DNA of 26,230 bases, taken from the UHGV virus genome UHGV-0206901; one strand, 5' to 3'. The stretch comes from a virus. A program made the translations under genes and the position numbers. Below, one piece after another: positions 16,605 to 22,601 of this stretch. Below the pieces are notes generated by a model. It worked only from the letters and a program-made list of their open reading frames with translations. It was not told the DNA's origin and made no database searches. Position 1 is the stretch's first letter; every line of letters begins with the position of its first letter.

Positions 16605-16633
16605 TTGATATATCTGCCGAAAAGAGTTATAGT
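16605..16633 (+). promoter_or_regulatory. Sigma-A-type promoter cassette 8 (TTGATA, 17 bp, TATAGT)
   Basis: Leader GTGTACAACGGAACGGGAAACCGAGCCGAAAACTACGAAAGAACGAGG; ATG at 16690. Confidence 0.55.
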
Positions 16634-16689: not shown

Positions 16690-16926
16690 ATGTGGCACGA
16701 AGGCACGATTCTGGCACCGACCAAGGAAGGCAAGACGGTGGTTCACTACTGGGCAAAGGTCTACGACGAGGGCAGCCAGTACGGCATCAACGAGGGCAGA
16801 ATCAGTAAACTAACACTCAAGGAGAATGGCAAGGTCATCTACAACTACGACAGAGGCGAGGATGTACCCGAGCAGAACGAGGCTGCGAAGATTGCCCTTG
16901 CGATCCTGATGTACGAGTACAAGTAA
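16690..16926 (+). CDS. Small hypothetical protein
   Basis: 78 aa ORF downstream of cassette 8. Confidence 0.5.
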   Translation: MWHEGTILAPTKEGKTVVHYWAKVYDEGSQYGINEGRISKLTLKENGKVIYNYDRGEDVPEQNEAAKIALAILMYEYK

Positions 16927-17014
16927 ATAGAACGGTCGGTGGGCGGTAGCATTAAGCCGCCCATCCAAACCAAGACGGACACACATATAAATTCAAGGTG
17001 GATATACATAGGAG

Positions 17015-17044
17015 AGGCTTGCAGCACGCAGGCCTTTTCTTTAT
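17015..17044 (+). terminator. Intrinsic terminator between the accessory island and the packaging genes
   Basis: AGGCTTGC agcac GCAGGCCT (8 bp, one G-U) followed by TTTTCTTTAT; ends about 30 nt before the terS start. Confidence 0.6.
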
Positions 17045-17074
17045 GCAGATTTTTTGAGAAAAGGAGTGATGCGG

Positions 17075-17548
17075 ATGGCTCAGAGAGGCAGAAAACCGAC
17101 GCCGACAGCAATCAAGGAACTGGAAGGCAATCCGGGCAAGCGTCCGCTGAATGATGCAGAGCCGAAGCCGGAACGCAAGGCACCGCCCTGTCCGAAATGG
17201 CTGGAGCCCGAAGCAAAAAAGGAATGGCGCAGGCTGTCAAAGCAACTGGAGCAGATTGGTGTGCTGACCGAGGTCGATCAGGCGGCATTCGCATCCTACT
17301 GTCAGGCATACGCACGATGGAAAGAAGCCGAGGAATTCATGACACAGCACGGCACGATCGTGAAAACAAAATCAGGTTACTGGCAGCAGGTGCCGCAGGT
17401 ATCCATTGCACAGACCTATCTGAAGATCATGAATAAGATCGCAGAACAGTTCGGTCTGACTCCTGCCGCAAGAAGCAGGATCACCGCAGGTGCGGATATG
17501 AAGGACGCTGCCGTTGACGATATGGATGAACTTCTCGGAGGTGACTGA
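17075..17548 (+). CDS. terS: Terminase small subunit
   Basis: AAGGAG 8 nt upstream of the ATG at 17075; 157 aa; basic N-terminus (RGRKPTPTAIKELEGNPGKRP) and overall pattern typical of P27-family small terminases; sits directly upstream of, and overlaps, the large terminase. Confidence 0.8.
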   Translation: MAQRGRKPTPTAIKELEGNPGKRPLNDAEPKPERKAPPCPKWLEPEAKKEWRRLSKQLEQIGVLTEVDQAAFASYCQAYARWKEAEEFMTQHGTIVKTKSGYWQQVPQVSIAQTYLKIMNKIAEQFGLTPAARSRITAGADMKDAAVDDMDELLGGD

Positions 17549-20214
17549 TGGCGAGAACGGCAAAGGCAAGAGAAAGACCTGCCAACTATCCGAAACTGAA
17601 GGATTATAAACCGACACGCTTTATGCTGCCGGAATCGCACTACGATGCGGCAAAGGCTGACCGAGCTGTGCGGTTCATCGAGAATCTCTGCCATACCAAA
17701 GGACGCTGGGCAGGAAAGCCGTTCTGGTTGCTGCCGTGGCAGGAACAGATCATCCGGGATATTTTCGGCATCGTCAAAGAGGATGATACCCGCCAATTCC
17801 GCACAGCTTATGTCGAAATTCCAAAGAAAAATGGGAAGCAGCTTGCACTGGATACACCGATCCCGACTCCGCAGGGATTCACCAATATGGGAGATCTGAA
17901 GGTCGGAGATACAGTATTCGATGAAAACGGCATTCCGTGCCATGTGGTTGCGAAAAGTCCTGTGGATGATACAGAGCAAGCCTACAAGCTGACCTTCAAG
18001 GACGGCAGCTCGATCATCGCCGGAGAACGGCATCTGTGGAACTGTCAGTATATTTACGGCAAACGCAAGGATGTTCTCTGGACGACCGGCGAGATCTATC
18101 GCAGGACTTCAGAATACAGACGGCGATTCTCAGACCGACCGCAGTCAAAGCGGGATTCTCTGATCCGAATTCCGGTGTGCGGTGTCCTTCAGACAGAAGC
18201 GGCAGTTTTACCGATTGATCCGTATCTGTACGGCTACTGGCTCGGAAACGGTAATGTGACCATGCCGGAGATCACTGTTCGGACGGAGGATGTCGAGGAT
18301 ATCATCTCGAATATTCCGTATAAGGTACACAACCGTTATCCGCAGAAATGCGGCGGCAGTGAGATCATAAAGTACAATGAACTGAAAGCAGTACTACTTG
18401 ACAGCTTCCGTGAAAAGAAGATCCGACCAGAATATCTGAGGGCATCCGCAGAGCAGAGATGGGCATTACTGCAAGGGCTTATGGATTCGGACGGCTGTAT
18501 CGGTGAACGCAAAGGGCAAAGTGTGTATGTCACAACGCTGCGAGAGCTGGCGCTTTCCGTCAGAGAACTGCTGTGGTCGCTCGGTATCAAAAATGCAGTG
18601 AAATGTGAGCCTTCTACTCGGCATGGGTGGCCGACTGGAGAGATTTTGTATATCGTCCGGTTTACTACCTTTGACGATCAGCCGACATCAAGACTGAAAC
18701 GAAAGTACACACGCACACGGGCGCGGGTGAAAGAAACTCGCTCCTGTTTTCATTATTTACTGGACATTCAGCCTGTGGATCATCCTGTGAAAATGCAGTG
18801 TATTCAGGTGGATAGTCCTAGCCACCAATATCTTGCTGGAACATCGTTTGTGCCTACGCACAACAGTGAGCTTGCAGCCGCAATTGCGCTGTATCTGCTC
18901 TACGCTGACAACGAGCCATCCGCCGAGGTCTACGGTGCTGCCGCCGACCGACAGCAGGCATCCATTGTATTCGATGTCGCCAAAAGAATGGTTGAGATGA
19001 CACTGGCACTTCTGAAACGCTCAAAAATCATGGCGGCGACAAAGCGTCTGGTGAATTACAGCAATGTCGGTTTCTATCAGGTGCTTTCGGCGGAGGTCGG
19101 AACAAAACACGGTCTGAATGTATCTGGGCTTGTGCTTGACGAGCTTCATGTTCAGCCGAACCGTAATCTTGTGGACGTTCTCACAAAGGGATCCGGTGAT
19201 GCCCGTACTCAGCCGCTGTACTTCCTGATCACCACAGCCGGCACTGACCGAAACAGCATCTGCTATGAATACCACACCAAGGCAAAAGACATCCTCGAAG
19301 GGCGGCGTATCGATCCGTCATTCTATCCTGTCATTTACGGTCTGGATGACGGCGACGACTGGAATTCAGAGGAATCGTGGTACAAGGCAAATCCGTCTCT
19401 CGAATACACAATTACCATAGACCGTGTGCGGGATGCCCATCGTGAAGCACTGACAAATCCTGCGGAAGAAAATGTATTCCGTCAGCTTCGTCTTGATCAG
19501 TGGGTTGGCAGTGCGGTTGCATGGGTGCCGGAGCATATCTACGACAAAGGCAATATACCAATCAATCCGGAGTCTCTGTACGGACGCGAGTGCTATGCAG
19601 GACTGGACCTTTCCAGTACATCTGATATCACGGCATTTGTTCTGGTATTCCCACCGTTGTATGAGGGTGATAAATACATCGTTGTACCCCACTTCTGGCT
19701 GCCGAGGGAAACACTTGACCTGCGTGTACGGCGAGACCATGTTCCCTACGATGTATGGGAGCGCATGGGGCTATTTCATATCACCGAGGGCAATGTGGTG
19801 GACTACAACTTCGTGCGGAAAACGATCAATGAGCTGCACACGATGTATAACATCAAGGAAATTGCAGCAGACCGCTGGAATGCCACACAGCTTATCACCG
19901 ACCTGCAGGGTGACGGTTTTACCGTTGTCCCGATGGGCATGGGCTTCAAGGATATGTCGCCACCGATGAAGGAGCTTTACAAGCTGCTGCTTGAGGGCAA
20001 GTTTATCCATGGCGGAAATCCTGTCCTGCGATGGATGGCAGGAAATGTGGTCGCTGAAATTGACGCGGCGGAAAATATCAAGCCGTCCAAGAAAAAGTCT
20101 ACAGAGAAAATTGACGGCATCGTAGCATGGATCATGGCACTTGACCGCTGCATCCGCCACGAAATGCAGGGCAGTGTCTATGACGAACCCGGCCACGATC
20201 TTGTGGTCATCTGA
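17548..20214 (+). CDS. terL: Terminase large subunit, interrupted by an in-frame intein at the Walker A (P-loop) site
   Basis: 888-aa ORF; N-extein ends ...EIPKKNGK and C-extein begins SELAAAIALYLLYADNEPSAEVYGAAADRQQ, which together rebuild a canonical PKKNGKS P-loop; C-terminal nuclease-domain-like region; followed by the portal gene. Confidence 0.92.
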   Translation: MARTAKARERPANYPKLKDYKPTRFMLPESHYDAAKADRAVRFIENLCHTKGRWAGKPFWLLPWQEQIIRDIFGIVKEDDTRQFRTAYVEIPKKNGKQLALDTPIPTPQGFTNMGDLKVGDTVFDENGIPCHVVAKSPVDDTEQAYKLTFKDGSSIIAGERHLWNCQYIYGKRKDVLWTTGEIYRRTSEYRRRFSDRPQSKRDSLIRIPVCGVLQTEAAVLPIDPYLYGYWLGNGNVTMPEITVRTEDVEDIISNIPYKVHNRYPQKCGGSEIIKYNELKAVLLDSFREKKIRPEYLRASAEQRWALLQGLMDSDGCIGERKGQSVYVTTLRELALSVRELLWSLGIKNAVKCEPSTRHGWPTGEILYIVRFTTFDDQPTSRLKRKYTRTRARVKETRSCFHYLLDIQPVDHPVKMQCIQVDSPSHQYLAGTSFVPTHNSELAAAIALYLLYADNEPSAEVYGAAADRQQASIVFDVAKRMVEMTLALLKRSKIMAATKRLVNYSNVGFYQVLSAEVGTKHGLNVSGLVLDELHVQPNRNLVDVLTKGSGDARTQPLYFLITTAGTDRNSICYEYHTKAKDILEGRRIDPSFYPVIYGLDDGDDWNSEESWYKANPSLEYTITIDRVRDAHREALTNPAEENVFRQLRLDQWVGSAVAWVPEHIYDKGNIPINPESLYGRECYAGLDLSSTSDITAFVLVFPPLYEGDKYIVVPHFWLPRETLDLRVRRDHVPYDVWERMGLFHITEGNVVDYNFVRKTINELHTMYNIKEIAADRWNATQLITDLQGDGFTVVPMGMGFKDMSPPMKELYKLLLEGKFIHGGNPVLRWMAGNVVAEIDAAENIKPSKKKSTEKIDGIVAWIMALDRCIRHEMQGSVYDEPGHDLVVI
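17839..18864 (+). mobile_element. Intein (~342 aa) with an embedded double-motif LAGLIDADG homing endonuclease, inside terL
   Basis: Block A-like LALDTPIPT...GDLKVGDTVF; block B GERHLW; two LAGLIDADG motifs (LYGYWLGNGNV and LLQGLMDSDGCI); terminal ...FVPTHN followed by Ser +1. Confidence 0.8.
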
Positions 20215-20229
20215 CAGGAGGTAATGTTT

Positions 20230-21612
20230 ATGAGCTTTTTAAGCTGGCTCGGCATCAGCAAGCCGAGAGATGCGCCGATGCTGCCTGATATTCAGGACAA
20301 TGTCCGTGATTCTGGAAATCTGTTCGTATTCGGCATGACGCACAGCGGTGAACGTGTCGATGAGCGCACGGCGATGCAGATCGTGACTGTTTACGCCTGT
20401 GTTCGACTGCTCTCCAACACCATCGCAGGACTGCCGCTGCACCTATACAGATACACCGGCAAGGGCGATGATAAGGAATTAGCCATTGACCATCCGCTGT
20501 ACAAAATACTCTATCGGCAGCCGAATCCCGAAATGAGTTCATTCTCGTTCTGGGAAGCACTGATGTGCCACCTTTTACTATGGGGCAACGCCTATGCACA
20601 GATTGTCCGGGACGGCAAAAACGGCATCCTCGGTCTCTATCCCCTGCTTCCCGAAAATGTCGAGATCGACCGTGATCCGAAATCCGGCGACCTGATCTAC
20701 ACTTACCACGCCTACACCGACGAAAAGCCCGGTGAGCATGACAAGGATATTATCTTCCGCAGGGATGAAATCTTACACATCCCCGGTCTGGGATTCAATG
20801 GACTGGTCGGTTTCTCACCGATAGCGATGATGAAAAATGCACTCGGTGCGGTCATGGCAGTAGAGCGATACGGCAGCGCCTTCTTCAAAAACGGAGCGCA
20901 GCCTGCCGGAGTTCTCGAACATCCGGGCGTGCTGAAGGATCCGCAGAAGATCCGCGACAACTGGACAAAGGCATACGGCGGCGCACGGAACGCACACCGC
21001 ATCGCAGTCCTCGAAGAAGGTATGCAGTATAAGCCAATCTCCCTGCCGCCGGAGGATTCGCAGTTTCTGTCCACAAGAGAATTCGATGTGGAGGAAATCT
21101 GCCGGATGTTTCAGGTTCCGCCGCATCTGGTACAAGACCTCAAACGCAGTACCTTCAATAACATCGAGCATCAGGGTATTGCATTTGTGCAGTATTCTCT
21201 TATGCCGTGGATCATTCGCATCGAAAAGGGCATCATGAAAGACCTTCTTCTGGAGGAAGAACAGAATGTATATTTCCCGAAATTCAATGTGGACGGTCTG
21301 ATGCGCGGCGACTACCAGAGCCGAATGAACGCCTACGCTATCGGTGTCGGCAACGGCTTTATGTCGCCCAATGATGTGCGCCGTCTTGAAAATATGGACT
21401 TGATCCCTGACGATCAGGGCGGCAACGACTACTACCTGAACGGCTCGTATAACAAGCTGGAGGATGCAGGTGCGGCATATGCTCTGAATCAGCCGCAGGA
21501 ACAGCCGGATACCGAGGAACAGGATGAGCCGGACGAGAATCCGGGCGAAGAAACCGATGACAGATTCCTGCGAAAAAAGCGCAGGAAGAAATACAAGAAT
21601 GGGGGTATGTAA
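20230..21612 (+). CDS. Portal protein (HK97-like family)
   Basis: AGGAGG 8 nt upstream of the ATG at 20230; ~460 aa; position immediately after terL; sequence features typical of HK97-type portals; acidic C-terminus. Confidence 0.88.
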   Translation: MSFLSWLGISKPRDAPMLPDIQDNVRDSGNLFVFGMTHSGERVDERTAMQIVTVYACVRLLSNTIAGLPLHLYRYTGKGDDKELAIDHPLYKILYRQPNPEMSSFSFWEALMCHLLLWGNAYAQIVRDGKNGILGLYPLLPENVEIDRDPKSGDLIYTYHAYTDEKPGEHDKDIIFRRDEILHIPGLGFNGLVGFSPIAMMKNALGAVMAVERYGSAFFKNGAQPAGVLEHPGVLKDPQKIRDNWTKAYGGARNAHRIAVLEEGMQYKPISLPPEDSQFLSTREFDVEEICRMFQVPPHLVQDLKRSTFNNIEHQGIAFVQYSLMPWIIRIEKGIMKDLLLEEEQNVYFPKFNVDGLMRGDYQSRMNAYAIGVGNGFMSPNDVRRLENMDLIPDDQGGNDYYLNGSYNKLEDAGAAYALNQPQEQPDTEEQDEPDENPGEETDDRFLRKKRRKKYKNGGM

Positions 21613-22545
21613 ATGGAAAAGTTCTGGAATTGGATCCACGATGACAGCAGCGGCAGAGTTCTTCGTCTCGAAGGTCCTATCGACTCGGAGAGCTTCTGGG
21701 GTGATGAAATTACGCCGCAATCTTTCCGCGATGAACTGTATGCCGAGGAGGGTGACATTACACTTTGGCTGAATAGTCCAGGCGGCAATGTGTTCGCAGC
21801 AGCAGAAATTTACACGATGATACGTGATTATCCGCACAGGGTAACGATAAAAATCGCAAGCATTGCAGCATCGGCGGCGAGCGTGATTGCTATGGCAGGA
21901 AATACTGTGCAGATGTCTCCGACCGCACTCCTGTTCGTGCATGATCCGTCCACAATTGCGATGGGAAACGCCAAGGACATGGAAAAAGCCATCGCAACAC
22001 TGAATGAGGTCAAAGAGAGCATCATCAACGCATATGCCGCAAAAACCGGACTCAGCAGAAACCGCATCAGCAAGCTCATGTCGGACGAGACATGGATCAA
22101 TGCGAAAAAGGCAGTTGAGCTGGGCTTTGCAGATGAGATTCTGTTCGATGAAAAGTCCAAACCGGACAAGAAGGATGAGCCTGACGATCCGGAGGAGGAT
22201 AAGCCCGAAAAGCCCGACGAGGAAGGCGGTGACGAGGACGGGGATGAAAAGAAGGAAACAGAAAAGAAGCCGTTCAAACTAGAATCCGGCGATGCCCTTT
22301 GGCAGTACAGTACCCGTATCATGGGGCAGACCATCTTGGGAAAGATCACCGCTTCCGCAGCACACGAAGGCACAGAGCCGCCCGATGACGGCAAGGCAGA
22401 TGATGCCCAGAAACCTTCCGAGGAATGGCTGACCGCACCGACAGTTACAGTGCCGGATATGCCTGTGATCGGCATGGACGGTAAAACCGCAGACGGCGCA
22501 ATGCCGTATGAAATTCTGAAACAGCAGCTTGCATTTTTGAGATAA
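21613..22545 (+). CDS. ClpP-family prohead (head maturation) protease with a C-terminal extension
   Basis: LWLNSPGGNVFAAAEIY and IASIAASAASVIAMAG (Ser nucleophile region) plus LLFVHDPS (His) match the ClpP/S14 fold; positioned between portal and capsid; ~130-aa acidic C-terminal extension. Confidence 0.85.
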   Translation: MEKFWNWIHDDSSGRVLRLEGPIDSESFWGDEITPQSFRDELYAEEGDITLWLNSPGGNVFAAAEIYTMIRDYPHRVTIKIASIAASAASVIAMAGNTVQMSPTALLFVHDPSTIAMGNAKDMEKAIATLNEVKESIINAYAAKTGLSRNRISKLMSDETWINAKKAVELGFADEILFDEKSKPDKKDEPDDPEEDKPEKPDEEGGDEDGDEKKETEKKPFKLESGDALWQYSTRIMGQTILGKITASAAHEGTEPPDDGKADDAQKPSEEWLTAPTVTVPDMPVIGMDGKTADGAMPYEILKQQLAFLR

Positions 22546-22601
22546 GGCTGGCTGTATTTTTATGCGACACCGGATTTTATCCGGAGAAATGGAGAAAAGA
22601 T

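Follow-up and report, generated by a model that had tools for sequence, protein, structure and literature searches.

A conserved intrinsic terminator abuts the small terminase gene in a lineage of Firmicutes temperate phages and may insulate the late operon

Results

The DNA directly upstream of the small terminase gene (terS) of the virus genome UHGV-0206901 carries an element that, judged by its structure, statistics, conservation and covariation, is a strongly conserved intrinsic (Rho-independent) terminator. With moderate confidence, we propose that this terminator insulates the late operon and that late expression proceeds by read-through, probably through factor-dependent antitermination. 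As an object, the element is an ordinary intrinsic terminator; its arrangement is mildly interesting, as it abuts terS, has no promoter downstream of it, and occurs where no known late regulator was detected. The phage must probably read through it to make virions. Should the terminator act in this way, it would be the point at which middle or accessory gene expression switches to late (virion) gene expression in a lineage that is abundant in Firmicutes of the human gut and rumen and that, through Phi1207.3, brings macrolide resistance to streptococci. No known Gram-positive late activator was detected among the scanned proteins. The terminator offers a precise handle for finding the factor that licenses virion production, and it also serves as an annotation landmark for the start of the packaging module.

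The window, by which we mean the whole stretch of 26,230 nucleotides that was analysed, is a one-directional run of a temperate siphovirus-type genome, coded on the + strand and taken from a metagenome scaffold of 29.9 kb. Its genes 5′ of terS encode NrdD/NrdG, three DNA methylases (one fused to ParB-N), two amidoligase-related proteins, and GGACT, DUF7698, DUF3846 and DUF7678 proteins; from terS on, the window holds terS, terL, the portal gene, a likely protease gene and the capsid gene. The features on which the argument turns are these:

16605–16633, + strand: nearest upstream sigma-70-like promoter (TTGATA-17-TATAGT), before the DUF7678 gene; one copy of a repeated promoter-leader module.
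16690–16926, + strand: upstream co-directional gene, encoding a DUF7678 protein of 78 aa (DUF7678, 1.2e-28; phrog_4709).
16938–16965, + strand: GC-rich hairpin without a T tract, within the DUF7678 cassette; it contains the ops-like GGCGGTAG and is not conserved.
17004–17011, + strand: ATACATAG motif adjoining the terminator hairpin; kept in the close clade and resembling TATATAGAT of Lachnospiraceae relatives.
17010–17040, + strand: predicted terminator hairpin (fold z = −4.74; covariation in 71 distinct hairpins; found in 87% of relatives versus 0–2% in controls).
17035–17044, + strand: T tract TTTTCTTTAT, the predicted U tract of the terminator; a T run is kept in nearly all relatives.
17045–17074, + strand: terS 5′ leader, made up of the spacer GCAGATTTTTTGAG and the RBS GGAG (17063–66); it has no promoter-like site and is too short for a promoter.
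17075–17548, + strand: terS, P27-family small terminase (Terminase_4, 2.8e-31), first gene of the packaging and structural operon.
17548–20214, + strand: terL (TerL match), late operon.
20224–21612, + strand: portal gene, late operon.

The hairpin before terS has the form of an intrinsic terminator

The core of the element is a stem of 8 bp with one U.G pair, formed on the + strand by AGGCTTGC (17015–17022) and GCAGGCCT (17028–17035) around the loop AGCAC (17023–17027). The T tract shares the last base of the stem and ends at 17044, leaving 30 nt to the terS ATG and about 17 nt to the RBS. ViennaRNA widened the helix to 13 bp (17010–17022 with 17028–17040) by pairing the purine run GGAGA with the first U residues. 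This extended fold was calculated at −20.1 kcal/mol, and 0 of 200 shuffles were equally stable. The core hairpin alone gave −12.3 kcal/mol as + strand RNA versus −8.4 for its reverse complement, and the T tract is present on the + strand only, with none on the reverse strand. The element thereby unites a stable GC-containing stem-loop, a U-rich tract placed directly 3′ on the transcribed strand only, and a structure that is kept over sequence. An earlier note, made from the letters of the window alone, had described a good intrinsic terminator with an 8-bp stem and a T tract, ending about 30 nt before the terS start; its description of the element is borne out by the fold, the conservation and the covariation, and its placement by the 17044 end and the ATG at 17075. 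That transcription terminates at this hairpin in vivo is what we infer from these properties.

A custom scan of the 26 kb window returned the hairpin before terS as the sole regular-stem intergenic terminator on the + strand. The built-in terminator scanner made no report of the 17010–17044 site, because the stem runs into the T tract, and its silence is no evidence against a terminator. Rfam found nothing at gathering thresholds and only chance-level matches at E-value thresholds.

The hairpin travels with terS and is conserved as a structure

Relatives were drawn from IMG/VR (L001–L080, TerS identity 87–99%), from GTDB (L164–L243, TerS identity 71–98%, from Oscillospiraceae, Ruminococcus flavefaciens 007c, Blautia, Dorea, Clostridium, Bacillaceae and Negativicutes) and from GenBank phages (‘Ca. 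Heliusvirales’ NatCom phages, Streptococcus Javan phages and the Phi1207.3-like phi29862). Overall, they span Oscillospiraceae, Lachnospiraceae, Bacillaceae, Negativicutes and Phi1207.3-like phages of Streptococcus. A clean hairpin with a T tract lay at −90 to −10 before terS in 94 of the 108 distinct relatives (87%), against 0–2% in six control windows at the same loci. The T tract begins 33–43 nt before the start codon in most relatives, and the hairpin is also present in the Streptococcus phages Javan57 and phi29862 and in the Heliusvirales phage PV036432.

The gene that precedes terS is far less constant. Among phages with TerS 87–99% identical it is DUF7678, DUF6809 or one of at least four other unrelated ORFs, so that the DUF7678 cassette is itself variable, with other genes taking its place in relatives. 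Bacillaceae, Streptococcus and Heliusvirales relatives carry small Zn-ribbon genes, DUF4314, Nmad4 or DUF7698 at this position. Where the DUF7678 cassette is absent, the stop codon of the upstream gene is often only about 15–30 nt before the stem. By this comparison the hairpin is inherited with terS, whatever gene stands upstream, and is a fixed part of the terS module. In two relatives with TerS 95–97% identical (L038 and L064), the hairpin is replaced by two unrelated hairpin and T-tract units; therefore, function appears to follow how the element folds and where it lies, not its sequence. Conservation across families is unusually high from the 3′ arm to the RBS, and the leader pattern ATGCCCATTTTTGAGGAAGGAGG is common to the window and to Bacillaceae and Lachnospiraceae relatives. 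The terS start keeps the same position in relatives, where the codon is ATG, GTG or TTG.

Covariation was assessed in alignment A3, an N-padded structural layout of 71 distinct homologous hairpins in consistent register, which was adopted because plain MAFFT alignments of the hairpin region (A1 and A2) lacked such a register. Paired bases occupied 92.3% of cells, both sides had changed in eight of the ten stem pairs, and 115 cells were compensatory; none of 500 shuffles scored as high, and slid registers paired at 28–60%. In 65 of 69 hairpins, RNA of the + strand had the greater stability (mean −13.4 kcal/mol, versus −8.4 for the − strand). These pair counts and the strand comparison lean towards structure, because A3 was laid out from predicted hairpins that had been selected on the + strand; the positional comparison of −90 to −10 with the six control windows is free of that selection.

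Two small motifs were seen near terS in individual relatives. An operator-like palindrome, TGTGATTATCACA, lies between the terminator and terS in L066 (about 2930–2985), and the motif TTAATGACATT recurs 5′ of terS in three unrelated loci (L164, L193 and L231).

Late transcripts probably start upstream and cross the terminator

The DUF7678 stop codon lies 85 nt from the hairpin, and transcripts of this gene are predicted to run into the terminator; the predicted promoter at 16605–16633 is the likely driver of the DUF7678 cassette. No sigma-70-like site was found between 17044 and 17075, and relatives have no conserved hexamers there. With about 17 nt from the T tract to the RBS, the earlier remark that no sigma-A-like promoter is obvious between the terminator and terS stands.

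Further upstream, sigma-A-like sites within 250 nt were not enriched (16 of 119 relatives observed, about 13 expected). The interval from 16927 to about 16990, including the hairpin at 16938–16965, belongs to the DUF7678 cassette and is missing in relatives with TerS 95–99% identical, and within the close clade only about 25 nt (..GGTGGATATACATAG) are shared upstream of the stem. The earlier note had left a choice between antitermination and a late promoter in 16930–17015. Comparison with relatives favours read-through, whereas a hidden promoter in 16930–17015 seems unlikely, that interval being mostly nonconserved cassette DNA. Since the terminator abuts the terS RBS and the DNA upstream is variable, transcripts of the late operon probably start upstream and cross the terminator.

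The exception to this lack of enrichment is a single clade (L026, L069, L070, L072, L075, L165 and L173), in which a strong TG-extended promoter, for example TTGACT-17-TGgTATCAT, is predicted about 85 nt upstream of the terminator. In L026, L069, L072, L165 and L173 no substantial ORF lies between this promoter and the terminator, only a possible frame of 6–21 codons. RNA made from this promoter can reach terS only by crossing the terminator; the gene upstream in L072 is divergent, which leaves this promoter as the only visible source of terS transcripts there. The promoter-leader-terminator layout is confined to this one clade. L072 (1–280) shows the divergent gene and back-to-back promoters directly before the terS leader. 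We considered and rejected a leader peptide or ribosome occlusion as the means of control: the small ATG-started frames of the L026-type leader vary in length, and the stop codon in the window is 85 nt off.

Terminator-like hairpins strewn along a one-directional gene array, including its late operon, are typical of processively antiterminated operons. The complete relative PV036432 (L082, Heliusvirales) has about ten clean terminator-like hairpins on the coding strand of its one-directional 40 kb array, among them hairpins that follow a MazF-like gene and the endolysin gene, that lie around the HNH gene, and that precede terS, the tape-measure gene and the lysis genes.

According to the mechanism that we favour, the terminator would stop RNA polymerase arriving from the co-directional accessory and DNA-modification genes upstream, several of which appear to have near-consensus promoters of their own, and the packaging and structural operon would thereby be kept insulated. 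The regulated step would be read-through, most plausibly by way of a phage-induced antitermination factor or RNA, with a logic akin to that of lambda Q at tR′. It is on this comparative evidence that we infer late expression to depend on antitermination and not on a leaky terminator or a promoter that escaped recognition.

Known late regulators were not recognised in the scanned proteins

The earlier note had proposed a search for a late activator or antiterminator elsewhere in the prophage. Pfam recognised no Q families, RinA/ArpU/LtrC, sigma-70 region 4, NusG-like or ConAn1 (PF17362) domains in the scanned window ORFs or in 36 otherwise unannotated PV036432 proteins; Pfam and PHROGs together returned no Ltr, sigma, Q, NusG-like or ConAn1 match among the window ORFs and the upstream ORFs of relatives. 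The PV036432 regulator scan covers the 25 of 28 families that were listed, and distant or novel regulators, as well as genes left of the window start, would escape it. That no promoter downstream of the terminator and no known late regulator are detectable points to an uncharacterised read-through mechanism.

Clustering of the ORFs within 6 kb upstream of terS gave only GGACT, amidoligase, Zn-ribbon, HNH and YacG-like families. The families that recur near terS across lineages are GGACT, amidoligase, a 68-aa Zn ribbon, HNH, and a YacG-like zinc-finger protein of about 140 aa, all of which are candidates only. An HNH endonuclease is expected beside a P27-type terS, and one was found 4–13 kb upstream of terS (in L140 1–10000, a relative from IMG genome 2571042740, and in 52 genome loci). 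The genes between HNH and terS encode a methylase, NrdDG, amidoligase, GGACT, Nmad4 and DUF7698 proteins and resemble a DNA-modification module, and the YacG-like protein stands alongside HNH in 22 loci.

A more specific form of the read-through proposal, which we hold only tentatively, is that the hairpin is the target of an undescribed late antitermination system common to a very widespread lineage of temperate phages in Firmicutes, one that takes in Phi1207.3-like phages of Streptococcus, ‘Ca. Heliusvirales’ of the gut, prophages of rumen Oscillospiraceae and those of Bacillaceae; the agent of this system would be an unrecognised protein or a cis-acting leader RNA. The block from terminator to RBS, together in some members with the promoter-leader-terminator unit, would act as PR′-tR′ does in lambda, and the conserved small zinc-finger proteins would be candidates for the antiterminator.

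The arrangement differs from known late-control systems

The staphylococcal and enterococcal phages 80alpha, phi11, phi55 and phiFL2A have the order ltr gene (rinA, arpU or ltrC), terminator, Ltr-dependent promoter and terS (Ferrer 2011, PMC3152322; Quiles-Puchalt 2013, PMC3753634). The present phages resemble them in that an intrinsic terminator just before terS would block co-directional read-through, with the late operon controlled separately. They differ in that the terminator touches the terS leader, so that a promoter would not fit, in that an Ltr-family gene neither lies next to terS nor was detected, and in that the upstream gene is variable. The ltr-terminator-promoter-terS order is impossible here, since the T tract ends only about 17 nt short of the RBS; directly upstream stand DUF7678, DUF6809, DUF4314, DUF7698, Nmad4 and other genes and not an ltr gene, and no hexamers follow the terminator.

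Late control in lambda depends on the antiterminator Q at PR′-tR′ (summarised in PMC8191782), in the arrangement PR′-6S RNA-tR′. As at PR′-tR′, the late genes here lie behind a terminator that needs to be read through, and the clade of L026, L069, L072 and L165 comes close to PR′-6S RNA-tR′, with a strong constitutive-looking promoter, about 85 nt, a terminator and then the late genes. Unlike in lambda, no Q-family protein was detected, the hosts are Firmicutes, and in the window a gene separates the nearest promoter from the terminator; a promoter directly before the terminator with no gene between them was found only in L026, L069, L072, L165 and L173.

Temperate phages with HK97- or lambda-type genomes also carry moron-style cassettes of promoter, gene and terminator. 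The DUF7678 gene resembles one, with its own near-consensus promoter (16605–16633) and a terminator after it, but the terminator here is inherited with terS and is present whatever gene precedes it.

The bipartite processive antitermination system conAn of Gram-positive conjugative plasmids consists of a ConAn1 domain (PF17362) and then a conAn2 region, 260–600 nt (PMC8191782). The resemblance lies in long one-directional operons of Firmicutes mobile elements dotted with intrinsic terminators, as in PV036432, and in accessory genes of the kind that Firmicutes mobile elements carry; Phi1207.3 was first described as a conjugative element. Unlike conAn, the present system gave no PF17362 match in the scanned proteins, and no conAn2-like region of 260–600 nt was identified.

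Alternative explanations for the hairpin

The best-surviving alternative to regulated read-through is an unrecognised late promoter, dependent on an activator or an alternative sigma factor, that overlaps or abuts the hairpin, with ATACATAG or TATATAGAT perhaps acting as a −10-like element. In that case, upstream transcription would stop at the hairpin, and late transcripts would start inside or just before it and either escape termination or carry the stem-loop as a 5′ stabilising structure. An AT-rich motif does lie directly 5′ of the hairpin in many lineages (ATACATAG, or TATATAGAT in Lachnospiraceae relatives), and the terS promoters of the best-studied Gram-positive phages are activator-dependent, with a poor −35 and a terminator upstream (PMC3152322, PMC3753634). 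The motif is missing, however, in Bacillaceae, L069-type and L074-type relatives that nonetheless have the hairpin, and where it is present its distance from the hairpin ranges from 0 to about 14 nt. By itself, the ATACATAG motif is no sigma-A promoter, and no −35 is conserved, because the DNA upstream consists of variable genes. No Ltr-family gene was found beside terS or among the scanned proteins, and a start a few nucleotides before the stem would leave the whole terminator in the transcript. Taken together, we consider a promoter at the hairpin unlikely.

A passive, partly leaky terminator, serving as an attenuator or insulator that dampens read-through from the strong accessory-gene promoters, would need no dedicated factor, and late proteins would rise after induction through template copy number and upstream transcription. 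Consistent with leakiness, the core stem, with one U.G pair, is of moderate stability (−12.3 kcal/mol), the U tract is not continuous (UUUUCUUUAU), and the tandem terminators of L038 and of the Lachnospiraceae group suggest that single copies leak; that no regulator was found in the scanned proteins is also as expected. Yet the structural genes, which are needed in bulk, lie behind a terminator that has long been conserved, further terminator-like sites stand inside the late operon of PV036432, and the clade in which the terminator comes straight after a strong promoter is difficult to account for without regulated read-through. We regard simple leakiness as unlikely too, and regulated read-through remains the reading that we prefer.

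The earlier note had suggested that this region could hold the packaging site, but it is very improbable that the inverted repeat is, or overlaps, such a signal, whether pac, the site of cos cleavage or a site bound by terminase. In favour of a packaging role, the terminase is of HK97/P27 type and the genome lineage also has an HNH gene, most listed records of cultured cos phages with P27-type TerS start about 20–70 nt upstream of terS, which mapped to the window would land on or near the hairpin, and the stretch between the 3′ arm and the RBS shows the unusual conservation across families noted above. Against it, stem and loop vary freely, with compensation, among phages with TerS 95–99% identical, L038 and L064 carry two unrelated hairpins in their place, a good hairpin forms only as + strand RNA owing to the U.G pairs, and the ends of BtCS33 and NIIg3.2 have no comparable hairpin. 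Nor do nearby contig ends coincide: four fall within about 100 nt of terS (L003, L008, L025 and L050), each at a different base, and a pattern scan added no contigs.

Other features of the window and its relatives

Within the DUF7678 cassette, we considered whether the hairpin at 16938–16965 belongs to an RfaH-type ops/JUMPstart antitermination signal at 16915–16953, since the ops-like GGCGGTAG occurs at 16942–16949. The Rfam JUMPstart model (RF01707) scored 16.7 bits at 16915–16953 against a gathering score of 35, and the 8-mer was present in 7 of 119 distinct relatives, all near-identical. The low score and this confinement led us to reject the signal, and the resemblance is probably a coincidence.

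Between 9560 and 16690, the window has a repeated module of about 150–200 nt before each accessory gene, with copies at about 9564, 11123, 12346/12410, 13274, 13950, 15258, 15807 and 16540/16604. Each copy combines GC-rich hairpins with a single or double near-consensus promoter (TTGATA/TTGCAC-17-TATAGT/TAATAT) and with a leader that is conserved (..GTGTACAACGGAAGGGC..CCGAAAAC..GGAGG..ATG). In L026-type relatives, a similar module with two promoters stands before the terS leader.

TerL of the window owes its length of 888 aa to an insertion placed exactly in the Walker A loop (about 17839–18861), a segment of 341 aa that includes a LAGLIDADG_3 domain, with the junctions ..KKNGK / QLALDTPIPT ... 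VPTHN / SELAAA... The same insertion is found in L069 and L165, and TerL is uninterrupted in L026 and L072 (547 and 546 aa), that of L026 being about 90% identical on both sides of the insertion. The segment looks like an intein, judging by its end (HN/S), but its first residue is Gln, not Cys or Ser.

Further into the late operon, at 22521–22563, the junction of the protease and capsid genes has a weak, large-looped hairpin with ATTTTTAT after it, which may serve ahead of the major capsid gene as a partial terminator or as a site of processing.
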